Shown here piece by piece: positions 1 to 40,669 of a DNA stretch of 64,000 nucleotides. The translations under genes and the position numbers were made by a program. The stretch's first letter is position 1. Each line of letters begins with the position of its first letter. The notes under the pieces are model-generated. The model saw only the letters and a list, made by a program, of their open reading frames with translations, was not told the DNA's origin and made no database searches. This DNA comes from Lysobacter sp. CFH 32150 (GTDB lineage: Bacteria; Pseudomonadota; Gammaproteobacteria; Xanthomonadales; Xanthomonadaceae): positions 148,940 through 212,939 of the forward strand of contig NZ_JALDWJ010000007.1 in the NCBI RefSeq assembly GCF_022758295.1, written 5' to 3'.

Positions 1-1729
1 GCACGATCGGTGACAACACGCCGACGTGGCGCGGGGTGCGGATCACGTGCACGCCTTCCGATTCGCCGAAGCGGCTGTCGGCATCGGCGAACACGAACAT
101 CTCGCCGCCGCGCGCGCGCACTTCCTGGATGTTGGACTTGACCTTCTCCAGCAGGCTGTCGTTCGGCGCGATCACCACCACCGGCATCGCGCTGTCGACG
201 AGCGCCAACGGTCCGTGCTTGAGTTCGCCGGCCGGATAGGCCTCGGCATGGATGTACGAAATTTCCTTCAGCTTCAACGCGCCCTCAAGCGCGATCGGAT
301 AGTGCATGCCGCGGCCGAGGAACAGCGCGTGCTGCTTCGGCGCGAAGCGGTCCGACCAGACGATGATCTGCGGCTCCAGGTTCAGCGCGTGCTGCACACT
401 GCCCGGCAGCTGGCGCAGCGCGTCGAGATAGCCGGTTTCCTGTTCCGCCGAGAGCAGCCCACGCAGTTTCGCGAGCGTGCCGGTGAGCACGAACAGCGCG
501 ACCAGCTGCGTGGTGAAGGCCTTGGTCGAAGCCACGCCGATCTCGGCACCGGCACGGGTGTAGTACACCAGCTTGCTCGCGCGCGGAATCGCGCTTTCCG
601 GCACGTTGCAGATCGACAGCGTCTTGTCGTGGCCGAGCGACTTGGCGTACTTGAGCGCTTCCATCGTGTCGAGGGTTTCGCCCGATTGCGAGATGGTCAC
701 GATCAGCTGCTTCGGGTTGGCGACGACCTTGCGATAGCGGTATTCGCTGGCGACTTCGACCGAACACGGCACGCCGGCGATCGCTTCGATCCAGTAACGC
801 GCGGTCAGGCCGGCGTAGTAACTGGTGCCACAGGCGAGGATCTGCACGGCTTCGACGTCGCGCAACACCGTCGCGGCGTCGCGACCGAACAGTTCCGGCG
901 TGAAGCCGTTGTTGTCGATCACCGCCTCGATGGTGTCGGCGACGGCGCGCGGCTGTTCGTGGATCTCCTTCTGCATGAAATGGCGATACGGGCCGAGCTC
1001 CAGCGAGGCCAGCGACACGTCGGAGACATGCACCTCGCGCTGCACCTCGTTGTCGGCGGCGTCGAACACGCGCACCGCCGTACGGGTGAGCTCGGCGGTG
1101 TCGCCCTCTTCGAGGAAGATCACCCGGCGCGTGGACGACACGATCGCGGAGACGTCGGAAGCGATGAAGTTCTCGCCTTCGCCGAGGCCGACCAGGAGCG
1201 GACAGCCCACGCGCGCGGCGACCATGCGCTCGGGATCGCGTTTGTCGATGACGGCGATGGCGTAAGCGCCGTCGAGTTCGCGCACGGCCTTCTGCAATGC
1301 CACGAGCAGATCATCGCCCTGCGTGCGGTAGTAATGGATCAGGTGCGCGATGACTTCGGTGTCGGTCTGCGACTCGAATTCGTAACCGAGCGCGCGCAGG
1401 CGTTCGCGCTGCTCCTCGTGGTTCTCGATGATGCCGTTGTGGACCAGTGCGAGCTCGCCGTGGCTGATGTGCGGGTGCGCATTGCCTTCGGTGACGCCGC
1501 CGTGCGTCGCCCACCGGGTGTGGCCGATGCCGAGCGTGGCGGTGAAATGCTCGGCCAGCGCCGCGGCTTCCATTTCAGCGACGCGACCAGTGCGACGCAC
1601 GCGACGCACTCCGCCATCGACGACCGCGATGCCGGCCGAATCGTAGCCGCGGTATTCCAATCGCTTCAGTCCTTCGATCAGGACCGGGACCACATCGCGA
1701 TTCGCGATCGCGCCAACGATGCCGCACAT
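1..1729 (-). CDS. glmS: Glutamine--fructose-6-phosphate aminotransferase GlmS. The C-terminus is truncated by the window edge. The N-terminus reads [13 protein letters not shown]... from the reverse complement, with the start codon at about 1727-1729.
   Basis: Reverse-complement translation gives the class-II glutaminase N-terminus (MCGIVG) and two SIS domains. It runs off the window, so it is absent from the ORF track. The plus-strand ORF 26..1762 is its antisense shadow. Confidence 0.9.
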
Positions 1730-1776
1730 GTTCTGCAGATTCCTTGCCAGGCCGGCGCCTAGTGTAGCCGGCACGC

Positions 1777-1818
1777 CGTCCGCGGACGCCGCAGTGTCCG
1801 CGCGGACGCCCTGTCCGC
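1777..1818 (+). promoter_or_regulatory. Candidate upstream activator sequence. Two perfect 12-bp palindromes, CGTCCGCGGACG (1777-1788) and GTCCGCGCGGAC (1796-1807), plus a third GTCCGC half-site at about 1813.
   Basis: Palindromes read directly. They lie 50-90 bp upstream of a sigma-54 -24/-12 element, and the cluster encodes its own sigma-54 enhancer-binding protein. Confidence 0.4.
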
Positions 1819-1852
1819 CCACGGCAAACCCATAAGAATCAATCAGTTGAAG

Positions 1853-1869
1853 TTGGCACGCGCCTTGCT
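1853..1869 (+). promoter_or_regulatory. Sigma-54 (RpoN) promoter TGGCAC-N5-TTGC, 40 nt upstream of the HlyD-family gene.
   Basis: The sequence gTTGGCACgcgccTTGCttt has GG and GC at canonical -24/-12 spacing. Confidence 0.6.
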
Positions 1870-1908
1870 TTACTTCTAGCAAGACCGTACTCGCGCAACA
1901 GGACCCGC

Positions 1909-3195
1909 ATGAGCATTCGTGACACTTCCGGACAGGACCGCGTAGTCGCCTCGGCACCCGCCGAAGTGCGGAACCGCAAGCTGCGCCAGCGCCTGCTCGT
2001 GACCGCAGGCGGCGGCACTGTGGTGTTGCTCGCGGCATGGCTGATCATCGGTTGGGGCGCCGGCGCGCGTTCGCTCGATGCCTCGCGCGTTCGCATCGCC
2101 GAGGTCAAGCGCGGCGATCTGGTGCGCGACATTTCCGCCGACGGCCGCGTGATCGCGGCGAACAACCCGACCCTGTACGCGATCGCCGGCGGCACGGTCA
2201 CGCTGAAGGTCGTCGCCGGCGATGCGGTGAAGAAGGACCAGCCGCTGGCCGAGATCGACAGCCCGGAACTGCGCAGCAAGCTCGCGCAGGAGCAGGCGAC
2301 GCTGGCCGGCCTGGAAGCCGAAGTCAGCCGCGCCGGGCTCGATGCACAGCTGTCGCGGGCGAACGCACGCAAGTTGTTCGACCAGGCGCAGATCGATCGC
2401 CAGTCCGCGCTGCGCGACCTGGAACGCAACCAGCGCGCCTTCGACGGCGGCGCCGTAGCGCAGATCGACGTGGCGCGCGCCCAGGACAACCTGAAGAAGG
2501 CCGATATCGGCCTCGCTCATGCGCGCGGCGACCTCGGCCTGCAGAGCGAAGGCGCGGGCCTCGATACCCGCAACAAGCGCTTGCTCGCCGATCGCCAGCG
2601 CGCGGTCGTCGCCGAATTGCAGCGCCAGGTCGATGCGCTGACCTTGCGTGCGCCATTCGATGGCCAGGTGGGCCAGGTCATGGCAGCACAGCGTGCGAAT
2701 GTTGCAGTCAACGCACCGGTGTTGAGCGTGGTCGACCTCAAGGTGTTCGAAGTCGAGATCAAAGTGCCGGAAAGCTTTGCCCGCGATCTCGCCATCGGCA
2801 TGCCGGCACAACTCACCGGTTCAAGTGGCACCTTTGCCGCGCAGCTCTCGGCGATCTCGCCGGAAGTGGTCGGCGGCGAAGTCACCGGGCGGCTGCGTTT
2901 CAAGGGCAAGCAGCCTTCCGCGCTGCGCCAGAACCAGCGCCTCAGCGCACGCATCCTGCTCGATACGCGCCGCAACGTGCTGATGGTGGAGCGCGGCCCG
3001 TTCCTCGAGCAGAGCGGCGGCAACAGCGCCTACGTGATGGATGGCAACAGCGCAGTGAAGCGCGCGATCCGCACCGGCGTCAGCAGCCTCGACGCGGTGG
3101 AAATCCTCGAAGGACTACAGGCGGGCGACCGCGTCGTGGTCTCCGGCGCCGACGGTTTCGGCGATGCCGAACGTATTCGAATCTCTGGAGAGTAA
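1909..3195 (+). CDS. HlyD-family periplasmic adaptor (membrane fusion protein) of a tripartite ABC efflux pump.
   Basis: 428 aa with one N-terminal TM, a long coiled-coil ([29 protein letters not shown]...) and a C-terminal beta-barrel, which is MacA/HlyD-like. Confidence 0.85.
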
Positions 3196-3197
3196 AC

Positions 3198-3410
3198 ATG
3201 AACACCCATTCCTTCCCCTTCGACCTGAGTTGGACGCCGCAAGACCTCGCCGACGCAGTGCCGCTGCGCCTGTCGGAACTGGTCGCCTTCGATGCTGGCG
3301 ACGTCGATGCAGCCAATGCAGCCGCGAGTGCCCCCATGCGGCGTGACTGGCGTCAGCGCAGTTACCTGCAGGCCGCCGAGTTGCCGGCATTCATCCGCAT
3401 CCGCCAATGA
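3198..3410 (+). CDS. Hypothetical small acidic protein (70 aa), translationally coupled to the adaptor gene.
   Basis: The ATG lies 2 nt after the HlyD TAA (gagTAAacATG). There is no TM. It sits in the same frame window as the spurious ORF 2037..3410. Confidence 0.4.
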   Translation: MNTHSFPFDLSWTPQDLADAVPLRLSELVAFDAGDVDAANAAASAPMRRDWRQRSYLQAAELPAFIRIRQ

Positions 3411-3417
3411 CACTGTT

Positions 3418-3502
3418 CTCGTCATTCCTGCGAAAGCAGGAATCCAACGACTTTGTCTCTACACGATAAGGCACTGGATCCCTGCTTTCGCAGGGATGAC
3501 GA
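3418..3502. repeat. Pair of inverted 28-bp hairpin repeats (ctcgtcattcctgcgaaagcaggaatcc / ggatccctgctttcgcagggatgacgag) flanking a 29-bp spacer, inside the operon.
   Basis: Each unit is itself a stem-loop and the two units are inverted relative to each other. This is REP/BIME-like and lies in the 130 bp gap between the small ORF and the ATPase. Confidence 0.6.
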
Positions 3503-3539
3503 GCAAAACAAAACCACATCCCATCCAAGGATCAAAGCC

Positions 3540-4271
3540 ATGCTGGACATGCAAGCCGTCTCCAAGGTCTATCGCACCGAACTCGTCGAAACCCACGCGC
3601 TGCGCTCGCTCGACCTGCATGTGCGTGAGGGCGAATTCGTCGCCGTCACCGGTCCGTCCGGCTCCGGCAAGACCACCTTCCTCAACATCGCCGGCCTGCT
3701 CGAAGACTTCACCGGCGGCACTTACAAACTCGATGGCGAGGACGTTCGCGGCATGTCCGACGATGCCCGCAGCAAGCTGCGCAATCGCAAGATCGGTTTC
3801 ATCTTCCAGAGCTTCAACCTGATCCCCGACCTCAACCTGTTCGACAACGTCGACGTGCCGCTGCGCTACCGCGGCATGACCGCTGCCGACCGCAAGCAAC
3901 GCATCGAGCAAGCGCTGGCGCAGGTGGGCCTGGGTTCGCGCATGAAGCACTACCCGACGGAACTCTCCGGCGGACAGCAGCAACGCGCCGCGATTGCGCG
4001 TGCACTCGCCGGCAGTCCGCGCCTGCTGCTCGCCGACGAACCCACCGGCAACCTCGATTCGCAGATGGCACGTGGCGTGCTGGAACTGCTCGAGGAGATC
4101 AACGCCAAGGGCACCACCATCGTGATGGTCACCCACGACCAGGAACTGGCCGCACGCGCACAACGCAACGTGCACATCGTCGACGGCATGGCTACCGATC
4201 TCTCGGTCGAACCGAGCCTGATCCGCGCGCGTGACCTCGCTGCGGCCGAATCCAACGCATCGATCGCGTAG
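3540..4271 (+). CDS. ABC transporter ATP-binding protein (MacB/LolD-type ATPase).
   Basis: Walker A GPSGSGKT, signature LSGGQQQRAAIARAL, and Walker B LLLADEPTGNLD. The start was moved from 3453 to the ATG at 3540, which has an AAGGA RBS. The upstream part of the ORF is encoded by the hairpin repeat. Confidence 0.9.
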   Translation: MLDMQAVSKVYRTELVETHALRSLDLHVREGEFVAVTGPSGSGKTTFLNIAGLLEDFTGGTYKLDGEDVRGMSDDARSKLRNRKIGFIFQSFNLIPDLNLFDNVDVPLRYRGMTAADRKQRIEQALAQVGLGSRMKHYPTELSGGQQQRAAIARALAGSPRLLLADEPTGNLDSQMARGVLELLEEINAKGTTIVMVTHDQELAARAQRNVHIVDGMATDLSVEPSLIRARDLAAAESNASIA

Positions 4272-4336
4272 GGCGGGTCTTGACCCGCCTTCCTGCAAAT
4301 CGATGAATCAAAAAAGCGGCGGGTCAAGACCCGCCC
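4271..4336. repeat. REP family A pair, GGGCGGGTCTTGACCCGCC and GGCGGGTCAAGACCCGCCC in inverted orientation.
   Basis: Palindromic units read directly. The same unit recurs at 17222-17323. The ATPase TAG stop abuts the first unit. Confidence 0.7.
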
Positions 4337-4349
4337 TACGGAGACCAGG

Positions 4350-5669
4350 ATGTTCGCTTATTACCTCGATCTCGCCCTGCGCAGCTTCCGCCGCAACAAG
4401 GTGCTGACCGCGCTGATGGTGCTGGCGATCGCGCTCGGCATCGGCGCCAGCATGACCACGCTCACGGTGTTCCATGTCCTGTCCGGGGATCCATTGCCGG
4501 GCAAGAGCAGCACGCTGTTCTACCCGCAGATGGACCCGACGAGCATGGATGGCTACGTTGCGGGCGAAGAACCCGACAGCCAACTCACCCGCTTCGATGC
4601 CGAAACCTTGTTGCGCCAGGCGCGGGGCGATCGCCAGGCGTTGATGACGGGCGGTGGCGTGGGCGTGCAACCGCAGAAGCAGGGGCTGTCGCCGTTCGCG
4701 ATCGAGGCGCGCTACACCTCCGCCGATTTCTTCCCGATGTTCGATGCACCGTTCCTCCATGGCAACGGCTGGAGCAAGACCGAGGACGAACGTCGCGATC
4801 GCGTCGCCGTCATCACCAAGCCGCTCAACGACAAGTTGTTCGACGGCGGCAACAGTGTCGGCAAGTCCGTGCGACTCGACGGGACCGACTTCCGCATCGT
4901 CGGTGTCGTCGCCGACTGGCGGCCGACGCCGAAGTTCTACGACCTCAATTCTGATCGCTACGGCGAGGTCGAACAGGTTTTTCTGCCCTTCTCCACCTCG
5001 CGCGACCTCAAGATGGGGCGTAACGGCAGCATGAACTGCTGGGACGCCGGCGACGACGCCGAAGACGATCCCGAAGGCGAAACCGGCGTCAACGCGCCCT
5101 GCACCTGGATGCAGTACTGGGTGCAACTCGACACGCCGGAAAAAGCCGAGGCCTACAAGAAGTACCTCACCAACTATTCCGACCAGCAGCGTGCGAGCGG
5201 CCGCTTCCAGCGTCCGACCAACGTGCGCCTGCGCAACCTGATGGAATGGCTGGACTTCAACGAGGTCGTGCCGAGCGACGTACGCCTGCAGGTGTGGCTG
5301 GCGTTCGGGTTCCTGCTGGTCTGCCTGCTCAACACCGTCGGCCTGCTGTTGGCGAAATTCATGCGGCGCAGCGGCGAAATCGGCGTACGTCGCGCGCTCG
5401 GGGCGTCCCGGCGCTCGATCTTCGCCCAGTGCCTGATCGAAGCGGGCACCGTCGGCCTCGTCGGCGGCATCCTCGGGCTCGGACTCGCAGCGCTCGGCCT
5501 ATGGGCGGTGCGTCAGCAACCCGCCAGCTATGCCGATCTTGCGCAACTCGACCCGGTGATGCTGTTGACCACGTTCGTGCTTGCCGTGGCTGCAAGCGTG
5601 CTGGCCGGGCTCGTGCCCGCCTGGCATGCCTGCCAGGTCACGCCCGCCATCCAGCTCAAGAGCCAGTGA
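4350..5669 (+). CDS. ABC transporter permease, FtsX/MacB-type, with an N-terminal TM, a large periplasmic domain and a C-terminal four-TM FtsX core.
   Basis: 439 aa. The topology is read from hydrophobic segments, and the motif GVRRALGASRRSIFAQ is typical of FtsX-family permeases. Confidence 0.85.
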   Translation: MFAYYLDLALRSFRRNKVLTALMVLAIALGIGASMTTLTVFHVLSGDPLPGKSSTLFYPQMDPTSMDGYVAGEEPDSQLTRFDAETLLRQARGDRQALMTGGGVGVQPQKQGLSPFAIEARYTSADFFPMFDAPFLHGNGWSKTEDERRDRVAVITKPLNDKLFDGGNSVGKSVRLDGTDFRIVGVVADWRPTPKFYDLNSDRYGEVEQVFLPFSTSRDLKMGRNGSMNCWDAGDDAEDDPEGETGVNAPCTWMQYWVQLDTPEKAEAYKKYLTNYSDQQRASGRFQRPTNVRLRNLMEWLDFNEVVPSDVRLQVWLAFGFLLVCLLNTVGLLLAKFMRRSGEIGVRRALGASRRSIFAQCLIEAGTVGLVGGILGLGLAALGLWAVRQQPASYADLAQLDPVMLLTTFVLAVAASVLAGLVPAWHACQVTPAIQLKSQ

Positions 5670-5677
5670 GGCCTGTC

Positions 5678-6910
5678 ATGCTTGATATCCGCCCCATCCT
5701 GTCGACCCTGCGTCGCCACAAGACCGCCTCCGCGCTGATCGTGCTTGAGATCGCATTGAGCTGCGCCATCATCTGCAACGCCCTGTTCCTGATCGGTGGT
5801 CGCCTCGAGCGCATGGAGCGCGTCAGCGGCATAGCCGAGAATGAAATGGTCCGCGTGTACATGACGGGCATCGGCAACGACGACAATGCCACTGCGCTGA
5901 CCAAGAGCGACCTCGCCGCGCTGCGTGGCCTGCCTGGCGTGAAGTTCGCCTCCGCCGCCAACCAGATCGTCTACGGCAACGGTTCCTGGAACAGCTCGGT
6001 CAACCTCACCAAGGACCAGACGCACCAGACGCTGAGCTCGACGATCTACATGGGCGACGAACAACTGCTCGACACCATGGGTCTTAACCTGGTGGCAGGC
6101 CGACGCTTCACGCCCGACGAGTTCGTCGAATGGGATGCACTTGCCGCGCCCAACAGCAAGGTCCAACCGCGGAGCGCGATCATCACCCGCAGCATGGCCG
6201 AGAAGCTGTTCCCGGGACAGAATCCGGTCGGCAAGCAGTTCTTCAGCTGGGGCGACGATCCGACCACCGTCGTGGGCATCGTCGAGCACCTGGTCCGCCC
6301 GAACGAACAGGGCGGTCCGACGGCGCACGAATACTCGATGCTGCTGCCGGTGCGCGTGCCCTACACCGTCGGCGGCAACTACCTGCTGCGCGTCGAGGAC
6401 CCGGCACTTCGCAGCGAGGTACTGAAGGCGGCGGTCGCAACGCTCCAACGCAACAATCCCAATCGCATCATCCTCGAGCAGCAGACGTTCACTACCCTTC
6501 GGGAACACTATTACCGCCAGGATCGGGCGATGGCCTGGTTGCTGGTGGCGGTGTCGATCGCACTGCTGGTCGTCACCGCGCTCGGCATCGTCGGCCTCGC
6601 CAGCTTCTGGGTGCAGCAGCGCACCAAGCAGATCGGTGTGCGGCGCGCGCTCGGGGCAACCCGCGGACAGGTCCTGCGCTACTTCCAGACCGAGAACTTC
6701 CTGCTCGCGACCATCGGAATCGTCATCGGCATGCTGCTCGCCTACGGCATCAACCAGTTGTTGATGGGCAAGTACGAATTGCCGCGGTTGCCGCTGCTGT
6801 ACCTACCGGTCGGCGCGGTGGTCCTGTGGTTGCTCGGACAACTGTCGGTGCTGGGTCCGGCGCGACGTGCCGCGGCGGTGCCGCCGGCAGTGGCTACACG
6901 CTCGGTTTGA
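5678..6910 (+). CDS. Second FtsX/MacB-type ABC permease, paralogous to the first.
   Basis: The start is taken at the ATG at 5678 (MLDIRPILSTLRRHK...) rather than 5246. It has the same architecture and a GVRRALGATRGQVL motif. Confidence 0.85.
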   Translation: MLDIRPILSTLRRHKTASALIVLEIALSCAIICNALFLIGGRLERMERVSGIAENEMVRVYMTGIGNDDNATALTKSDLAALRGLPGVKFASAANQIVYGNGSWNSSVNLTKDQTHQTLSSTIYMGDEQLLDTMGLNLVAGRRFTPDEFVEWDALAAPNSKVQPRSAIITRSMAEKLFPGQNPVGKQFFSWGDDPTTVVGIVEHLVRPNEQGGPTAHEYSMLLPVRVPYTVGGNYLLRVEDPALRSEVLKAAVATLQRNNPNRIILEQQTFTTLREHYYRQDRAMAWLLVAVSIALLVVTALGIVGLASFWVQQRTKQIGVRRALGATRGQVLRYFQTENFLLATIGIVIGMLLAYGINQLLMGKYELPRLPLLYLPVGAVVLWLLGQLSVLGPARRAAAVPPAVATRSV

Positions 6911-6931
6911 GGAAGCAGGTAACCTTGCACG

Positions 6932-8287
6932 ATGCCGACGATCCTGGTCATTGATGACAACCCCGCGGTTGCGACCGCACTGGAAACCCTGTTCTCGTTG
7001 CAGGCATTGACCACGCTGGCGGCATCGACGCCGCAGCGTGGGCTGGCCCTGCTCGAACGCGAACAGGTCGATCTCGTCGTGCAGGACATGAACTTCCAGG
7101 CCGACACCACGTCGGGCGAGGAAGGCGTGGCGCTGTTCGGCGAGATCCGCGCGCGCTTTCCGGACCTGCCCGTCGTACTGCTGACTGCATGGACGCACCT
7201 GGAAAGCGCGGTCGACCTGGTCAAGGCCGGCGCCGCCGATTACCTCGCCAAACCGTGGGACGACCGCAAGCTGCTGGCGACGGTCAACAACCTGCTGGAA
7301 CTGTCGGAGACGCGGCGCGAACTCGCACAGGTGCGCGCAGGCGAGCGCCGACGCCGCGACGAGCTCGCACGCGACTTCGACCTGCGCGGCTACGTGTTTG
7401 CCGACGCCGCGAGCGAACGCGTGCTGTCGCTGGCGTGCCGGGTCGCGCGCTCGGAACTGCCGGTGCTGATCACCGGCCCGAACGGCGCGGGCAAGGAGAA
7501 GATCGCCGAGATCGTGCACGCCAATTCGACGGTCAAGGATGGCCCGTTCGTCGCGCTCAACTGCGGTGCACTGCCGGGGGAGTTGATCGAGGCCGAGTTG
7601 TTCGGCAGCGAGGCCGGCGCGTACACGGGCGCCCAGCGCGCGCGCGAAGGCAAGTTCGAAGCGGCCGATGGCGGCACCCTGTTCCTCGACGAGATCGGCA
7701 CGTTGCCGCTGGCCGGACAGGTCAAGCTGCTGCGCGTGCTCGAAACCGGCCGCTTCCAGCGTCTTGGCAGCAACAAGGAACGCCAGGTCAGCGTGCGTGT
7801 GCTCAGCGCCACCAATGCCGACCTGCCCGCGCTGATCCGTGCAGGACACTTCCGCGAAGACCTGTTCTATCGCCTCAATGCGATCGAACTGCAGTTGCCG
7901 CCGCTCGCCGAACGCCGCGACGACATCCTGCCGCTGGCACGGCATTTCCTGCCCACGGGCAAACGCCTGACGGAAGATGCCGAGCGTGCGCTGCTGGCAC
8001 ATCGCTGGTCCGGCAACGTGCGTGAGTTGCGCAACGTGGTGCAGCGCGCTGCACTGCTTGCACGCGATGCGACGATCACCGCCGAAGCGCTCGGTTTGCC
8101 GACATCGACGCCGACCAATGGAAACCACGTCGTGTTCGACGAACCGGACCGCGTTGCGATCGAGGCTGCATTGCAACGTAATGGTGGCGTACTGGCACAA
8201 GCCGCGAGCGACCTCGGCCTGTCGCGGCAAGCGCTATACCGCCGATTGGAGCGCCTGGGCATCAAGCGCGACGAAGGCCGGGACTAG
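6932..8287 (+). CDS. Sigma-54-dependent response regulator, with REC, AAA+ enhancer-binding and Fis-type HTH domains (NtrC family).
   Basis: REC aspartate context (DLVVQDMNF), Walker A GPNGAGKE, a GAYTGA variant of GAFTGA, and a C-terminal HTH ([15 protein letters not shown]). Confidence 0.9.
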
Positions 8288-8551
8288 GGCCTGTTAACAC
8301 TTATGGAGCATGCCGCGTTGTTTCCCAACGGTCGTCAGGTGGTGTTGCACCGCGCAGCGCCTTGCCGCCTGCAAGGTCAAGCGGTGCGGCGCCGCATGGC
8401 GGCCGTTGGGAAACAACCCAAAGGGCCGGGCCTGAAGCCGCGCGGTGCCGCGTCATCGCTCGGTTGCGTATCGACATACGCGCCCTCACTCTTCCTTGCC
8501 CCGCGCGGCTTCAGGCCCGGCGCGGCATGCTCCATAAGTGTTAACAGGCCC
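8288..8551. mobile_element. MITE-like element copy 1, 264 bp, with 31-bp perfect terminal inverted repeats GGGCCTGTTAACACTTATGGAGCATGCCGCG and flanked by TAG on both sides.
   Basis: The TIRs and a nested internal long hairpin were read directly. It is homologous to the elements at 40390-40655 and 41011-41136, in inverted orientation. Confidence 0.6.
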
Positions 8552-8556
8552 TAGCA

Positions 8557-9872
8557 TGCGCTGGCGTCAACGGCTGCCGTTAAGCCTGCAATTCAGCGCG
8601 GTCGCGCTGGGTTACATGGTGCTGGCCGCGGTCTTGACCCTGTTGCTCTCGCAATGGCTCGCCAACCGCTGGCTCGCCGCGGCCATCGCCGTGGTGGTCT
8701 TGCTGCCGTTGCTCGTCTATCACGTCAGCCGCGCTTTCGCGCCGATGCATTCGCTGTTCCGCGCGCTCACAGGCACGGTCAGCAGTTATCGCGACGGCGA
8801 CTACAGCTTCGGCCTGTCCTGGGACGGCGGCGGTGAACTTGGTGCACTCGTTGCCAGTCACAACGCCCTCGGCGATGCACTGCGCGACCAGCGCCTGGCA
8901 CTGGTGCAACGCGAACTGCTGCTCGACACCATGGTGCAGAACACGCCGGTGGCGATGCTGCTGGTGGATCCGGGACGCCACATCGTCCATGCCAACATCG
9001 CCGCACGCAAATTGCTGGGCGAGGGCCACAAGCTCGAGGGACACGCCTTCGACGCGCTGCTGCAAGCCGCACCTGCTGCCATGCAGCAAGCGTTCGCCAA
9101 TGGTGGCGACGGCATGTTCAGCGTCGGCGATGAAGACGACGAGGACATCTACCATCTCTCGCGCCGGCAATTCCGCCTCAACGGACGCCGCCACGAACTG
9201 ATCCTGCTGCGCCAGCTCACCGCCGAGCTGCGCCGACAGGAAGTGCATACCTGGAAGAAAGTGATCCGGGTGATCAGCCACGAACTCAACAATTCGCTCG
9301 CGCCGATCGCCTCACTGGCGCATTCCGGCGCCGAATTGTTGCGTCGTGGCCAGCTCGAGCGCTTGCCGGTCGCGTTGTCCACGATCGAGGAACGCGCGCG
9401 CCACCTCGAAGGCTTCATCCGCGGTTATGCCCGTTTCGCCAAGCTGCCGGCACCTCGCTATGAACCCGTCGCGTGGCCGCGCTTCATCGAGCAGTTGCGC
9501 GGACAAGTCGCGTTCGCGTTCGATGGCCCGGTTCCAGAAGGCAACATCCGCGTCGATGCCGCGCAGTTGGAGCAGGCGTTGCTGAACCTGCTCAAGAACG
9601 CCCACGAGTCCGGCTCCGGACCGGAGCACGTGCAACTCGCGTTGCGGCGCCTGCCCGATGCCTGGCGGATCGATGTACTCGATCGGGGCCAGGGCATGAA
9701 CGCCGCGGTGCTCGCCAATGCACTGCTGCCCTTCTATTCGACCAAGCGCAACGGCACCGGCCTGGGGCTGGCGCTGGCACGCGAGATCGCCGAAGCACAC
9801 GGCGGCCGCATCGCCCTGCTCAACCGCGAGGGTGGCGGATTGTGCGTGAGCCTGACGCTGCCTACGGCTTAG
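8557..9872 (+). CDS. Sensor histidine kinase with two N-terminal TMs, a PAS-like domain, HisKA and HATPase_c; partner of the sigma-54 regulator.
   Basis: H-box VISHELNNSLAPI, N and G boxes (LLNLLKNAHES, GTGLGLALAREIAEAHGG). The start is taken at the first ATG (8557) after the MITE. The track ORF starts at a GTG (8538) that lies inside the MITE. Confidence 0.8.
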
Positions 9873-9934
9873 ATGTGCAGATCCAACCAGGCCGAAGCAA
9901 ACACCATGTACTAAACAGCACCGGCGCCGTAGCG

Positions 9935-11305
9935 CTATTTCGGCGTCTTCACCGGCCGCTGCCATCCTTCGATGGTTTGCTGGCGGCCGCGCGCGACGGT
10001 GAGCTTGCCTTCCGGCGCCGGCTTGCTGATCACGGAACCGGCGCCGATCGTCGCGTTCCTGCCGATCGTCACCGGCGCCACCAATGACGAGTTCGACCCG
10101 ATGAAAGCGCCATCCTCGATCGTGGTCGTGCTCTTGTTCACGCCGTCGTAATTGCAGGTGATCGTACCAGCGCCAACGTTGACGCCTGCGCCGATCACGG
10201 CGTCGCCAAGATAAGCGAGATGGTTGGCCTTGCTGCCGACGCCGAGCTGCGCGTTCTTGGTCTCGACGAAGTTGCCGATGTGCACGCCATCGGCAAGCAC
10301 GGTACCGGGACGCAAGCGCGCAAACGGGCCGATCAGTACCGCGCCTTCGCTTCGCGCACCGTCGAGATCGCAATGGGCGCGCACTTCGGTGCCCGCAGCG
10401 AGTCTGACGTCCTTCAAGCGGCAAAACGGGCCGATGCGGACGCCATCGCCGAGCTCGACCCGGCCTTCCAGCACCACGTCGACATCGATCTCGACATCGC
10501 GGCCGACCGTGACCGTGCCGCGGATATCCAGCCGGGCCGGATCCACCACGCGTGCGCCCTGCAGGCATAGCGCGCGCGCGCGGCGCAGCTGGAGCGCACG
10601 TTCGAGTTGCGCGAGCTGCCACGGATCGTTGGCGCCTTCGGTCTCCATCGGGTCGGCGACCTGCACGATTTCGGCCGCGCTGAACTCGGCGGTGGCCATG
10701 GCGAAGATATCGGTGAGGTAGTACTCGCGCTGCGCGTTGTCGTTGGAAAGGCCATTGAGCCAACGCTTCAGCGCCGTCGCTTCGGCGGCGATCACGCCGG
10801 TGTTGATCACGCGGATGCGACGTTGTTCTTCGTCGGCGTCCTTCTGCTCGACGATCGCGGCGACGCGGCCTTCGGCATCGCGCAGGATCCGGCCGTAGCC
10901 GTCGGGGCTCGCCGGTTCCGCGGCCAGCACCGCAAGGCGGCCCGGTGTGGCGAGCAGGCGCTGCAGGGTTTCCGGCGTGATCAACGGGACGTCGCCGTAC
11001 AGGACCAGCACCTGGACGCCGTCGGGTACGTTCGACATCGCCTGCTGCACGGCGTGGCCGGTGCCGAGTTGCTGCGCCTGTTCGGCCCACTGCAGATCGG
11101 TCTGCTCCTCGAATGCGGCGCGCACTTGTTCGCCGCCGTGGCCGAAAACCACATGGATGCCAGCCGGGTGCAGTGCGCGCGCAGTGTCGATCACCTGTGC
11201 CAGCATCGGTCGACCGGCGATCCGTTGCAGCACCTTCGGCAACGCCGATTTCATGCGTTTGCCTTCGCCGGCGGCGAGGATGACAACGTGGAGAGGAGCA
11301 GTCAT
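9935..11305 (-). CDS. glmU: Bifunctional UDP-N-acetylglucosamine pyrophosphorylase / glucosamine-1-phosphate N-acetyltransferase GlmU.
   Basis: N-terminus [20 protein letters not shown] and C-terminal hexapeptide (LbH) repeats. The start was reset from the TTG-extended ORF (11494) to the internal ATG, giving about 457 aa. Confidence 0.9.
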
Positions 11306-11372
11306 GCGAGCCTCGGCGATATGCCTCGCGGGTGTCTGCGACAATCTTAGCAACCCCCGACACGTCGCCCGC

Positions 11373-12938
11373 ATGAACCCTTCGCTGCCGGCCAGGCTAT
11401 TTTCCCTCCGCAGCTGGATCGTGGCGTTGAGCATCGCGCTGCCGCTGCTTGTGCTCGTTCGCCAGGGACAGGACGCGAACTGGGATCTGCGCAACTACCA
11501 CCTCTACAACCCGCACGCGTGGTTACACGGGCGCCTGGCGATCGACATCGCCCCGGCGCAGCTGCAGAGCTGGCACAACCCGTTGCTCGACCTTCCGTTT
11601 TACCTGATGGCGCAAGCCGGCTGGCCCGGCTTGGTGGTCAGCCTGTGGCTGACTTTGCCCTTCATCGTCTCGTTGTACTGCCTGCTGCGTATCCAGCAGC
11701 GCATGACCGGCGGCGGCGCAACCCGGATCGGAGCCGTTGCGCTTGCCGCGATCGCGATCACCGGGGCTGCCACCCACCCTTCGCTGGGCACTACCCTCAA
11801 CGATGGCTTCGTCGCGGCCGTAGCGATGGCGAGCTTGTTCCTGCTGTTGCGTCGCGACGCGCCGAAGCCCAGCGATTGGCTGTGGGCGGGCGTGCTGGGC
11901 GGTGCGATGGCCGGTCTCAAACTGACTGCGGCGATCTATTGCCTGGGCCTGGCCGGCGCGGCGTTGGTCGCGTGCCGTTGGCAGGACGCGCCCAAACGAT
12001 TGGCCATGCTGATGCTGGGCGGTATCGCCGGGTTCATCCTGACCTATGGCTATTGGGGATGGACCGTGCAGCAGATGCATGGCAATCCGATGTTTCCTTA
12101 CTTCAACCAGATATTCCATTCGCCCGGCGCATTGCCGACCGCGCACGCGGACGCCCGGTTCCGTCCGCAAACCCTGATTGACGCCTTGCTGACGCCATTC
12201 CGGTTGTTGCAGATGTCGAATCGTTACTCCGAACTTGAATTGCGCGATCCGCGCCTGCTGACCGGCATCGTCTGCTTCCCACTGCTGTTGTGGCTGGGCA
12301 AGCACTGGCCAGAGCACAAGGAGAAGCTGCGCATGCTCGCGGCGTTCTTCTTCGTCTCGCTCGTGGTCTGGCTGTACCTCTACGGCATCTACCGCTACGC
12401 CCTGCCGCTCGAGATGCTGGCGGCGTTGCCGTTGGTGTTGCTGCTGCAGCGGCTTCCGCAACCATGGGCACGCATCGCGCTGATCGTGGCGGCGTTGGCG
12501 TTTGTCAAAGTCACCATCCGTCCGGACTGGAACCACACCCGCTTCACCACGCCCATGGTCCAGGTCGACATGCCCACGTTGCCGGTTGGATCGATGCTGG
12601 TCGTCAGCAGCCAGGAGCCGCTCGCTTACGCGTTGCTCGCCATAGCCGATGACGTTCCCGTCGTCTCCATCTACAACAATTTCATGATCCCGGAGCGTTG
12701 CACCGGCCTGCAGGCGCAGGCAGAGCGACGGATTGCCTCGCACCAGGGGCCGCTATGGCTGTTGCGCACGCCATCGGAAGCCGACGACGTGGGCGAAACG
12801 ATCGCGCGGCAGTACGGGTTGACGAGTGCCGGCTGCCAGCAGGTGCCGACTAGCCTTGGCGAGTTGCGACTGTGCCGGTTGCAGCACCGGCCGGCTCCGA
12901 TTGCATGCCAGGTCCCCGCGCCAGCACCTGGTCGGTGA
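11373..12938 (+). CDS. Polytopic membrane protein, probably a GT-C-type glycosyltransferase (ArnT/PMT/DUF2029-like).
   Basis: 521 aa with at least 10 predicted TM helices. Start reset to [10 protein letters not shown]. It is adjacent to GT2 and GtrA genes. The family assignment is inferred, not motif-proven. Confidence 0.55.
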
Positions 12939-13839
12939 TCAGGCGTAGCAGTTCCTGGCTACGGCGGTTGACCGTGTCGAGGATCAGGCCCGTGGCCAAC
13001 GACAGCATGCCCGCCAGGACCAGGGCCACCGCGAGCACCGCGGTCGACGGATGGGTGACCGAACCGGTCAGGGCGAATTCGCGCACCACGAAGGCGCCGA
13101 AGGACAGTCCCGCCGCCATGCAGGCCATGGCGATCGCGCCGAAGAAGAACAACGGACGATAGTCCTTGTACAAAAACAGGATCGTGCGCAGGACGCGCAA
13201 ACCATCGCGGTAGGTATTGAGCTTGGAATAACTGCCTTCCGGCCGCGATCCGTATGCGACCGGCACTTCCCGCATGTGCAATCCCTGCGCCAGGGCGAAG
13301 ACGGTCATCTCGGTCTCGATTTCGAACCCGTGCGACAGCACCGGCATCGACCGCACGAAGCGCCTGCTGAAGGCGCGGTATCCGGACAGGACATCGGCCA
13401 GCGAGGCATTGAACAGGCGCGATATCACCGCGCGTACGAGCCGGTTCCCGATGCCATGGAAGCGACGGAATGCACGCGCATCATGGTCTTCCAGACGCGT
13501 GGCCACCACCATGTCGGCGTCGCCGGAAAGGACGGGCTGCAGCAGCAGCCGGGCGCTGTCGGCCGGATAGGTGTCATCGCCATCGACCATCAGCAGCACG
13601 TCGGCGTCGATCTCCCGAAACATCCACCGCACCACATGCCCCTTACCCTTGCTGGCGACGGTATGCACCCGTGCACCGGCTTCGCGCGCGCGCGCAGCCG
13701 TGGCATCCGTGCTCGCGTTGTCGAAGACATGGATCGTCGCCTCCGGCAGCGCGGCGCGAAAATCAGCGACCACCTTGGCCACGGTCTGTTCTTCGTTGTG
13801 GCACGGGATCGCGACGGCGATCGAAGCAATGGAGGCCAT
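12850..13839 (-). CDS. GT2-family glycosyltransferase (polyprenyl-phosphate sugar transferase, GtrB/ArnC/DPM1-like).
   Basis: N-terminal motif IAVAIPCHNEE, DGDD (DXD), and two C-terminal TM helices. It overlaps the 3' end of the convergent membrane-protein gene by about 89 bp. Confidence 0.8.
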   Translation of the reverse strand: MASIASIAVAIPCHNEEQTVAKVVADFRAALPEATIHVFDNASTDATAARAREAGARVHTVASKGKGHVVRWMFREIDADVLLMVDGDDTYPADSARLLLQPVLSGDADMVVATRLEDHDARAFRRFHGIGNRLVRAVISRLFNASLADVLSGYRAFSRRFVRSMPVLSHGFEIETEMTVFALAQGLHMREVPVAYGSRPEGSYSKLNTYRDGLRVLRTILFLYKDYRPLFFFGAIAMACMAAGLSFGAFVVREFALTGSVTHPSTAVLAVALVLAGMLSLATGLILDTVNRRSQELLRLITDQVLARGPGMQSEPAGAATGTVATRQG

Positions 13840-13934
13840 GTCGGATCCTGCTTGGGTGCGAGTCATTATCCGTTATCCGTTGGCGGGCGGTGCACTGGTA
13901 GCATTCCCGCGGACATGATTGCCCCATACGAACA

Positions 13935-27165: not shown

Positions 27166-27903
27166 CTATTTGTGGCGATTGACCTTGGCTTCGAGTAGCT
27201 CGAGGCGCTGCCCATTCGGCAGTCGATACTCCAGCGCATCGTCGATCGCGTCGAGGGCTTCCATGCGCTGGCACAGCGTTTCGGCGCGCCGTTCCAGCGC
27301 CCTCGCCCGCGGTTCGACGCGGGCTTCGATGTCCTTGTCCATGTTCTCCATGCGCTGCAAGCGCATGGTGTCGCCACTGAGGGCCGCCCGCACGGCGCCG
27401 CCGACGATGTCGCCGATCAGGCTGGGCAGTACGTCGCTGACGGCGCTGCCGATACCCTGGCCGAGATCATGGCCATTGAAACGGGTCGGCGTGACCGAGC
27501 GCGACAGGCGCGCATCGAGTTGCGCGCGTGCCTTGCCCAGCTTTGCGCGAGTCTCCTTGGGGTCGCTGCTGAAACCGGCAGCGACTTCGCCAAGCGTGAC
27601 GAATGCGATCTCGGCGGCATCGTGGCCGATTTGCTGCGCGACCACCATCGTCGCGCGCGCATCTCGTTCGTAGTCCCTGATGCGCTTGCTGTCGGCCGCA
27701 GTCAACGTGACCCATTGGTCGTCGATGAACAGGCGGCCTTCCCGCATCACGATGGCCTTTGGCGTATCGCTTTCGCGGGTGAAGATCACGCTTTTCGGGG
27801 TGATGTGGAAGTCGTAGTCGCTGTCGACGTCGCAGCTGATTTCCTTTGCCCCCGCATGCCCAGCAAACAGCAATAGAACGCTCGCAAACACCATGCCACG
27901 CAT
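27166..27903 (-). CDS. Hypothetical periplasmic protein with a signal peptide (start reset to MRGMVFASVLLLFAGHAGA).
   Basis: Signal peptide followed by a charged, helical C-terminus. No motif recognised. Confidence 0.55.
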   Translation of the reverse strand: MRGMVFASVLLLFAGHAGAKEISCDVDSDYDFHITPKSVIFTRESDTPKAIVMREGRLFIDDQWVTLTAADSKRIRDYERDARATMVVAQQIGHDAAEIAFVTLGEVAAGFSSDPKETRAKLGKARAQLDARLSRSVTPTRFNGHDLGQGIGSAVSDVLPSLIGDIVGGAVRAALSGDTMRLQRMENMDKDIEARVEPRARALERRAETLCQRMEALDAIDDALEYRLPNGQRLELLEAKVNRHK

Positions 27904-40374: not shown

Positions 40375-40669
40375 CGCAACGCCGCACCAGGGCCTGTTAA
40401 CGCTATCCGAGCAGGTCGCGCCGGGCCTGACGGCGTGCGAGGCAAGGAAGAGCGAGGGCGCGTATGTCGATACGCAACCGAGTGATGACGCGGCATCGCG
40501 CGTCCTCAGGCCCGGCCCTCCGGGTTGCTCCTCAGTGGCCGCCAGCCGGCGCCGCGCGCCTTGTCCTTGCAGCAAGCAAGGCGCTGCGGCACGCAACACC
40601 ACCTGGCAGCCACTGAGGAGCAACGCGACCTGCTCGGATAGCGTTAACAGGCCCTGGTGCGGCGTTGCG
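40375..40669. mobile_element. MITE-like element copy 2. The core (40390-40655) is bounded by GGGCCTGTTAACGCTATCCGAGCAGGTCGCG TIRs, extended to 46-bp inverted repeats.
   Basis: TIRs read directly. The internal region is about 80% identical to copy 1 (inverted) and includes a long hairpin with compensatory changes. Confidence 0.6.

Follow-up and report, generated by a model that had tools for sequence, protein, structure and literature searches.

A predicted sigma-54-controlled export module with paired MacB-type permeases, conserved between glmU and glmS in the Lysobacteraceae

Among ATP-binding cassette (ABC) transporters, those of type VII are built in several ways. MacB and FtsX are homodimers, LolCE is a heterodimer, and BceB and YbbP are fused forms; LolCE is the only heterodimer given in the family review, and the representative tripartite homologues, MacB, PvdT, AatP, DevC and CexP, have a single permease gene each (PMC5985334). 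The subject of the present work is a plus-strand cassette of seven genes and about 8 kb, found in a 64,000-nucleotide (nt) stretch of DNA from Lysobacter sp. CFH 32150 (contig NZ_JALDWJ010000007.1, positions 148,940 to 212,939; the whole stretch is called the window). In this cassette, which lies between minus-strand glmS and glmU and runs opposite to both, adaptor coupling like that of MacAB appears to be combined with a LolCE-style heterodimer and a separate ATPase. The strain is placed in the Lysobacteraceae, a family that as used here includes Xanthomonas and Stenotrophomonas. The cassette is likely to be a family-conserved envelope export module, adaptor-coupled, heterodimeric and of the MacB type, that is controlled by sigma-54 and a two-component system. 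There is no surprise in kind, since every part comes from a known family; the operon itself is uncharacterised in the literature found, and searches on sigma-54 together with MacB, FtsX or HlyD, on Xanthomonas RpoN and on glmS contexts returned no study of it.

All counts among relatives are based on 80 related loci, fetched with GlmU as the query and limited to one genome per species, whose gene content was determined by tblastn with all window proteins. Domains were called with Pfam and NCBIfam, and membership in a family was judged against the NCBIfam model cut-offs. To compare promoters, the regions upstream of the adaptor gene were aligned for 38 usable orthologous loci. The control elements and genes of the cassette are the following.

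1777-1818, plus strand: candidate upstream activator sequence (GTCCG/CGGAC palindromes and a half-site), from a motif scan and conservation
1837-1849, plus strand: IHF-like site AATCAATCAGTTG, which matches WATCAA-N4-TTR, 17 nt upstream of TGGCAC
1854-1868, plus strand: predicted sigma-54 -24/-12 promoter TGGCACGCGCCTTGC, an exact TGGCAC-N5-TTGC, 41 nt before the adaptor ATG
1909-3195, plus strand: HlyD-type membrane fusion adaptor, 428 amino acids (aa); Pfam HlyD_3 and HlyD_D23, NCBIfam TIGR01730
3198-3410, plus strand: small protein, 70 aa; no Pfam match; GGAG Shine-Dalgarno sequence 7 nt upstream
3540-4271, plus strand: ABC ATPase, 243 aa, a separate polypeptide; Pfam ABC_tran
4350-5669, plus strand: permease 1, 439 aa; Pfam MacB_PCD and FtsX
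5678-6910, plus strand: permease 2, 410 aa; Pfam MacB_PCD and FtsX
6932-8287, plus strand: NtrC-type sigma-54 enhancer-binding response regulator (the activator); Response_reg, Sigma54_activat and HTH_8, with a GAYTGA loop
8556-9872, plus strand: sensor histidine kinase, 438 aa; PAS_8 (borderline), HisKA and HATPase_c

An earlier note on this DNA had listed all of these elements but the IHF-like site, which it overlooked, and its list needed only small corrections: the promoter, given there as 1853-1869, occupies 1854-1868, and what were described as tandem GTCCGC/GCGGAC palindromes at 1777-1818 are two palindromes plus one half-site. That note also took the cassette for an accessory insertion, a view that it held to be incompatible with universal presence at this position in the family. 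The synteny comparison does not bear this view out, as near-universal presence is essentially what was found. The cassette occupies the same place in about 60 of the 80 loci; in 34 it is complete, with glmU and glmS on its two sides and with order and orientation unchanged, and in about 26 others it reaches the end of the fetched DNA. The loci that carry it belong to at least 12 genera (Lysobacter, Luteimonas, Noviluteimonas, Thermomonas, Pseudoxanthomonas, Stenotrophomonas, Xanthomonas, Marilutibacter, Solilutibacter, Cognatiluteimonas, Coralloluteibacterium and Arenimonas). Directly adjacent glmU and glmS were seen in 5 of the 80 loci: one from Rudaea (L078), which belongs to the Rhodanobacteraceae, two from uncultured bins of unresolved placement (L073, L079), and two from within the family, a Luteimonas bin (L004) and Aerolutibacter (L024). 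In a Lysobacter bin (L038) a kinase fragment of 185 codons persists at 1725-2279 of that locus between glmU and glmS, a remnant that looks like a deletion scar and indicates that absence of the cassette can be secondary. Retention of the cassette at one locus in some 60 of 80 relatives points to long-term selection, and it is an old, conserved part of Lysobacteraceae genomes, an ancient insertion that goes back to the base of the family or close to it.

The classical sigma-54 promoter is laid out as an enhancer, followed by an IHF site and then a -24/-12 element, and the region upstream of the adaptor gene has the same order of motifs. TGGCACGCGCCTTGC is the sole exact match to TGGCAC-N5-TTGC in the window. 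(A second, sigma-54-like match at 27884-27898 was dropped; it lies inside an open reading frame [ORF].) The palindromes GTCCGCGGAC and GTCCGCGCGGAC are located at 1778-1787 and 1796-1807, and the half-site GTCCGC at 1813-1818. Taken singly, neither the promoter motif nor the palindrome motif is significant, as at least one match turns up in 21-27% of shuffles; what counts is the clustering, the order and the conservation of the motifs over the 38 orthologous loci. TGGCA[C/T]-N5-NTGC is present in all 38 upstream regions, at 48-114 nt before the aligned adaptor start in 37 of them and at 337 nt in the other (L053). GTCCG-N0-4-CGGAC palindromes lie just upstream of it in 34 loci, often as two copies about 21 bp apart. 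The motif WATCAN-N4-TTR, which we take to be the IHF consensus, is found at a fixed distance of 17-18 nt upstream of TGGCAC in 21 of the 38 loci, compared with 0.3% of shuffled controls, and most of the remaining loci have versions of it with one mismatch.

What the cassette shares with promoters of the NtrC, NifA and XylR type is the canonical spacing of its GG/GC elements, an IHF-like bend site that falls between enhancer and promoter, enhancer palindromes spaced by about two helical turns, and an activator composed of receiver (REC), AAA+ and HTH_8 domains. The cassette differs from them in its compactness, with enhancers centred at about -78 and -97 and an IHF-like core that ends only 4-5 nt upstream of TGGCAC, and in its activator, which throughout the orthologue group has GAYTGA rather than GAFTGA and matches no named NCBIfam equivalog above its cut-off. 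The idea that the block holds a self-contained sigma-54 circuit, with upstream activator sequence, -24/-12 promoter, enhancer-binding protein and kinase, is thus backed both by domain content and by a conserved promoter architecture, and such a circuit has strong comparative support.

The activator matches Sigma54_activat with 217.5 bits, and its sigma-54-contacting loop is GAYTGA in 52 of 53 orthologues; the same motif contacts sigma-54 in HrpS (PMC8657755). Its scores against the equivalog models all lie below the corresponding cut-offs (NtrC 339/559, PrsR 331/503, AtoC 319/714, GlrR 286/763 and ZraR 274/760, as score/cut-off), which is consistent with a distinct subgroup of the NtrC family. 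In Xanthomonas oryzae the candidate sigma-54 activators number only six, and three NtrC-family ones (PXO_03020 together with PXO_03564 and PXO_03965) have been called unstudied (PMC7170775, PMC8657755). By domain type only, the orthologue of the cassette activator should be among these three. XibR, an NtrC-family protein of Xanthomonas, was considered as the orthologue and rejected; it is an orphan without a linked sensor (PMC5130282).

The kinase is predicted to have two adjacent transmembrane (TM) helices followed by HAMP-like, PAS, HisKA and HATPase_c regions. The hydropathy profile contains overlapping hydrophobic stretches, 7-36 and 34-64, which are read as helices at about 10-32 and 38-60. 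Given that this leaves a loop of about 6 residues, the kinase would have no periplasmic sensor domain. Conservation within the kinase is lowest in its TM region (0.37; the DHp domain reaches 0.84), which argues against a conserved Bce-like TM contact with the pump and makes the HAMP-like and PAS regions the likelier sensors. In the window a gap of 21 nt after permease 2 makes it probable that the activator gene is cotranscribed with the pump genes, an arrangement that would result in positive autoregulation. In many relatives other genes intervene between permease 2 and the activator gene; they encode DUF885 proteins, extra permeases or, in Xanthomonas, a small PDZ-like protein. The DUF885 protein (609 aa, with a signal peptide) is seen at this junction in L031, L045, L018 and L022; L002 has a weak DUF1349-like match, and the Xanthomonas locus L026 has a protein of 183 aa with a weak PDZ_2 match. 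The junction thus appears to be a hotspot for different, apparently secreted proteins across genera, and with such genes intervening, the two-component system may often be a separate transcription unit.

With MacAB-TolC the cassette shares permeases of the 4-TM, FtsX type whose periplasmic core domain is like that of MacB, an adaptor of the HlyD/MacA class that bears a TM helix at its N terminus, an operon without an outer-membrane factor gene, and two-component control, here predicted and for MacAB exerted by PhoPQ (PMC5985334). The adaptor scores 124.8 bits against TIGR01730, above the cut-off of 94.9, and so falls within the membrane fusion protein class; hydropathy places its one TM helix at residues 28-50. 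By the same measure both permeases have TM1, then a large periplasmic domain (about 265 aa in permease 1), then TM2-4. The search for MacB_PCD and FtsX domains that the earlier note proposed matched both domains in both proteins (MacB_PCD, 81.6 and 50.8 bits; FtsX, 67.4 and 61.6 bits). In a sequence search against solved structures, MacB is the first match for both permeases and LolC is much weaker. The AlphaFold2 model of permease 1 has a predicted local distance difference test (pLDDT) score of 57.5 and gave Foldseek TM-scores of 0.3-0.4; with a model of such low confidence the fold search served as a ranking only, and the order obtained was MacB, Spr0695, LolC/E, YtrF, YbbP, BceB and FtsX.

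There are also differences from MacAB-TolC. The cassette ATPase is separate rather than fused; there are two paralogous permeases, distant from one another at 24% identity, instead of a homodimer; the operon would be under sigma-54 and an NtrC-type activator rather than an OmpR-type regulator; and there is an extra gene for a small protein. Scores against the equivalog models also remain far below their cut-offs, with 60.1 against 342 for MacA and, for MacB with its cut-off of 966, only 55 and 38 (permeases) and 207 (ATPase). The top NCBIfam models for the ATPase, DarD, LolD, FtsE and the MacB nucleotide-binding domain, likewise all fall below their cut-offs. (Its translation likely begins at the ATG at 3540 and not at the TTG at 3453, which is inside a repeat.)

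A resemblance to LolCDE had been pointed out in the earlier note. It stands for the subunit arrangement, that is, two paralogous FtsX-type permeases with a separate ATPase, as in LolCE (PMC5985334), and not beyond it: MacB is the nearer relative of the permeases both by sequence and by fold, and no Lol model is reached. The LolD models score 220.9 against a cut-off of 307.75 and 199.8 against 360, and an NCBIfam search of the permeases gave no LolC or LolE model at E <= 1e-5. Moreover, the cassette has a membrane fusion protein and would be inducible through sigma-54, whereas LolCDE is an essential housekeeping system.

For both permeases, the best NCBIfam model is TIGR03434, the fused, duplicated ADOP permease of 803 positions, to which permease 1 aligns over positions 7-401 and permease 2 over positions 410-801. 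With scores of 163.7 and 194.9 bits, which fall short of the cut-off (622.3), the two are not members, and the pair is best described as a split homologue of ADOP, the equivalent of a fused double-FtsX permease. YbbP, another such fused permease, is among the fold matches. The cassette differs from ADOP in having two genes in place of one fused protein of about 800 aa and in not being an 'orphan', as the genes for ATPase and adaptor are adjacent; it differs from YbbAP in that the partner of YbbAP is the lipid hydrolase TesA and not an adaptor (PMC12646458).

Eight relatives have extra permease genes inside the operon. A complete second pair, with permease 1 and permease 2 in the same order, is found in four of them (L014, L019, L050 and L056); in a fifth, L040, there is an extra permease 2 and then the end of the fetched DNA. 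A third, permease-2-like gene is present in L006, L036 and L042. In each case the additional permeases are served by one ATPase and one adaptor. That the permeases have been duplicated together, as a pair, suggests that they form a heterodimer and is what would be expected of an obligate one, and the added pairs of the relatives suggest exchangeable heterodimeric modules. As expected for parts that touch a substrate, the periplasmic domains of the permeases are less conserved (0.46-0.57) than the TM regions (0.74-0.86). Within the periplasmic domain of permease 1, C230 and C251 flank an acidic loop, WDAGDDAEDDPEGETGVNAP (5037-5102). Both cysteines are invariant among homologues of at least 76% identity, and the loop sequence is poorly conserved over the wider orthologue set (0.42). 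This loop may be a disulfide-stapled, cation-binding feature, and as such a clue to the substrate. In L049, L055-L057 and L061-L069, where kinase and activator are 57-79% identical to those of the window, the adaptor and permeases at the same locus are 39-56% identical; the transporter part seems to evolve faster than its regulators, or to have been swapped relative to them.

Taken together, these comparisons suggest how the module might operate. Judged by homology, the pump would be a type VII MacB-like ABC machine, made up of two copies of the separate ATPase and a heterodimer of the two paralogous 4-TM permeases, the split ADOP equivalent, coupled to the HlyD-type adaptor. If MacAB-TolC is a guide, this adaptor would pass substrates from the periplasm or outer leaflet to an unlinked outer-membrane channel. 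Transcription would start from the sigma-54 promoter at 1854-1868, which is predicted to be silent until activated. The cassette's own NtrC-type activator would bind the GTCCG/CGGAC palindromes at about -97 and -78, and a bend at the IHF-like site, from about -43 to -31, would loop it onto the sigma-54 holoenzyme. The activator would in turn be phosphorylated by the cassette's own kinase, which, as it is predicted to have no periplasmic sensor domain, would perceive its signal within the membrane or via its cytoplasmic HAMP and PAS regions. The substrate is most likely a toxic compound that acts on the envelope, or an endogenous envelope or secondary metabolite.

The module lies next to glmS in plant pathogens (Xanthomonas), in an opportunistic, multidrug-resistant human pathogen (Stenotrophomonas) and in biocontrol Lysobacter. 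The inducing signal and the substrate, once known, would reveal what one of the very few sigma-54 circuits of these bacteria does, and the pump would be the first characterised adaptor-coupled, heterodimeric pump of the MacB type. In addition, mini-Tn7 integration in Lysobacteraceae uses glmS-proximal sites (bioRxiv 10.64898/2026.02.02.703240), so that this neighbourhood is of practical relevance.

The 70-aa ORF between the adaptor and ATPase genes appears to be a real gene, belonging to a narrow family of largely disordered small proteins. More than 20 loci have, at this same position, an ORF of 65-94 aa with shared motifs. The motifs are W-x3-DLADAVPLRL and, at the C terminus, LPAF[I/V]RV[R/H], and the invariant residues are W12, D16, L17, A20, P22, L25 and Y56. 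The 36 database homologues are all annotated as 'hypothetical protein' and lack a Pfam domain, and a profile search of 1.84 billion representative proteins returned 148 clusters, almost all of them stand-alone proteins of 64-93 aa. The AlphaFold2 model, of low confidence (pLDDT 58.8), is mostly disordered, and a hydropathy scan found no signal peptide and no TM segment. The gene is absent from the cassettes of Xanthomonas, Stenotrophomonas, Pseudoxanthomonas and Arenimonas, where the gap between adaptor and ATPase genes is 35-110 nt. Most likely the protein is a lineage-specific, cytoplasmic accessory or regulatory partner, either of the pump or of the two-component system, in the branch of Lysobacter, Luteimonas and Thermomonas.

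The upstream activator sequence also lies close to glmS. A sigma-70 consensus scan found no glmS promoter, and a -10 element was instead assigned from conservation: virtually all aligned relatives have a TAnAnT hexamer some 30 nt upstream of their glmS ATG, and TACACT (1761-1766) is probably this element in the window. The palindrome at 1778-1787, which of the two is nearest to glmS and farthest from the pump promoter, is located 11 nt upstream of the hexamer, over the likely -35 region of glmS; many relatives have a palindrome at the same -35 position. Through this overlap, binding of the activator could influence glmS. However, in at least eight relatives (L001, L028, L032, L041, L048, L053, L054 and L061) extra DNA parts the palindromes from the glmS promoter, which argues that the overlap is not a conserved requirement, and cross-regulation of glmS by the activator is a low-probability possibility.

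Several observations weigh against the reading as an inducible, adaptor-coupled export pump, and other readings must be set beside it. There is no outer-membrane factor gene within 1740-9872, so that a tripartite assembly is assumed; the permease model, as noted, is of low confidence (pLDDT 57.5, TM-scores 0.3-0.4); the small protein, missing as it is from the cassettes of four genera, is not a core subunit; a sigma-70 consensus scan found no basal promoter for the two-component system, although one is needed; in this strain, a hairpin inserted between the genes for activator and kinase may uncouple the expression of the two; and we infer sigma-54 dependence, activator binding at the palindromes and the pairing of kinase and activator. 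A Lol-like or YbbAP-like extractor would answer the first of these points. Here the permeases would pull lipid, lipoprotein or glycolipid from the inner membrane to a periplasmic partner, the adaptor would be a mechanotransmission partner, and nothing would span to TolC. Two paralogous permeases with a separate ATPase are the LolCDE arrangement (PMC5985334), all characterised type VII systems act via a periplasmic partner (PMC12646458), and the fused relative YbbP is among the fold matches. Yet LolD stays at 220.9 bits where 307.75 are called for, LolC and LolE models are missing at E <= 1e-5, MacB ranks above LolC/E by both sequence and fold, the adaptor passes the efflux adaptor model TIGR01730, and MacAB too relies on an unlinked TolC, all of which make an extractor unlikely. 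Still less probable is that the pump, the loop-less kinase and the small protein are a Gram-negative, sigma-54-wired counterpart of the Bce transporter-as-sensor modules of Firmicutes, which sense and detoxify antimicrobial peptides. In such a scheme the same signal would also tune glmS, through the enhancer sites on its promoter, and with it the supply of amino sugar, UDP-N-acetylglucosamine (UDP-GlcNAc), for envelope repair. BceAB-BceRS does resemble the cassette in that an ABC transporter related to type VII is genetically linked to a two-component system. The Bce kinase has two TM helices with hardly any loop outside the cytoplasm (PMC5985334), a layout that the cassette kinase may share. 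BceAB-BceRS differs in that BceB is a single 10-TM permease without an adaptor, as opposed to the 4-TM permeases of the cassette, in that its regulator is OmpR-type and sigma-70 dependent rather than NtrC-type, and in that the cassette kinase carries cytoplasmic HAMP-like and PAS regions. If such a scheme were true, one switch, conserved in Xanthomonas, Stenotrophomonas and Lysobacter, would couple efflux to the synthesis of envelope precursors.

Two further readings concern the place of the cassette between glmU and glmS. The two-component system might chiefly regulate glmS, as GlrK/GlrR does in enterobacteria, with the pump as a co-regulated passenger; the palindrome over the -35 region, seen in many relatives as well as in the window, the association with glmU and glmS throughout the family, and a GlrR score that is strong but sub-threshold (285.6 against 763) would fit. 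This is nevertheless very unlikely, given that in the eight relatives with extra DNA the hexamer stays with glmS and the palindromes stay with the pump promoter, that the glmS strand has no -24/-12 element, and that an Rfam scan of 1-12000 found no known RNA, GlmY and GlmZ included. The view of the earlier note, put here as a horizontally acquired insertion that split an adjacent glmU-glmS pair in this strain or lineage, can appeal to the five loci in which the two genes adjoin, to the opposite orientation of the cassette, and to the fact that an insertion did occur at some past point. Against it are the exact position shared by at least 12 Lysobacteraceae genera, a G+C content of 62-68% that equals that of the flanks, the kinase fragment of L038, which allows absence by loss, the lack of mobility genes, and borders that show no integrase, transposase or tRNA, the sole mobile DNA being a later element inside the cassette. 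An accessory insertion is refuted as a recent event, and as a reading of the cassette it is highly improbable. Nor is there much reason to think that the 70-aa protein is the cargo of the pump, a secreted peptide or its precursor. Its gene does sit between those for adaptor and ATPase, the protein is small and disordered with a conserved C-terminal LPAF[IV]RV[RH], and the best model for the ATPase is that of the darobactin exporter, DarD, below cut-off. But MacB-type pumps draw their substrates from the periplasm, whereas this protein has no signal peptide or TM segment; there are no modification enzymes nearby; and the gene is missing from many orthologous cassettes that have the whole pump. 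This reading, too, is highly improbable. The export module set out above is preferred to all of these.

The remaining features of the cassette and its surroundings are as follows.

1-1729, minus strand: glmS, the 5' 576 codons, as the gene runs off the window start; the translation begins MCGIVGAIA; Pfam GATase_6/7 and two SIS domains
1761-1766, minus strand: putative glmS -10 hexamer TACACT, about 30-31 nt upstream of the glmS ATG, from conservation
3418-3503, no strand: REP-like inverted repeat pair with 36-nt arms, 86% complementary
4272-4335, no strand: inverted GC-rich hairpin pair, GGCGGGTCTTGACCCGCC and GGCGGGTCAAGACCCGCC, in the gap that separates the ATPase gene from permease 1
8285-8554, no strand: insertion of 270 bp like a miniature inverted-repeat transposable element (MITE), with perfect 34-bp terminal inverted repeats and CTAG flanks
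9935-11305, minus strand: glmU; Pfam NTP_transf_3 and Hexapep

The REP-like pair (CGTCATTCCTGCGAAAGCAGGAATCC and its partner) follows the small ORF and contains the spurious TTG start at 3453. Both this pair and the MITE had been overlooked before. The MITE-like element is positioned exactly between the TAG stop codon of the activator gene and the ATG of the kinase gene; as RNA it folds with -215 kcal/mol (z = -17.5), and it could affect expression of the kinase. Its absence from all 80 related loci indicates that the insertion is recent. Related copies in the window are found at 40388-40656 and from 41009 onward, with the shared terminus (C/T)AGGGCCTGTT(A/C)AC; exact-match metagenome scans for this terminus gave nothing, or six single 18-mer matches only. 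Further along the window is the atp operon, on the minus strand. Between it and glmU are genes for a PMT_2/ArnT-like membrane glycosyltransferase (about 11400-12938, plus strand) and a GT2 glycosyltransferase (12850-13866, minus strand). This pair is seen at the same position in 3 of the 80 relatives (L018, L022 and L036), and one other (L075) has a PMT_2-like gene alone. It is plausibly this glycosyltransferase pair, and not the efflux cassette, that is the patchy, accessory insertion of the neighbourhood.

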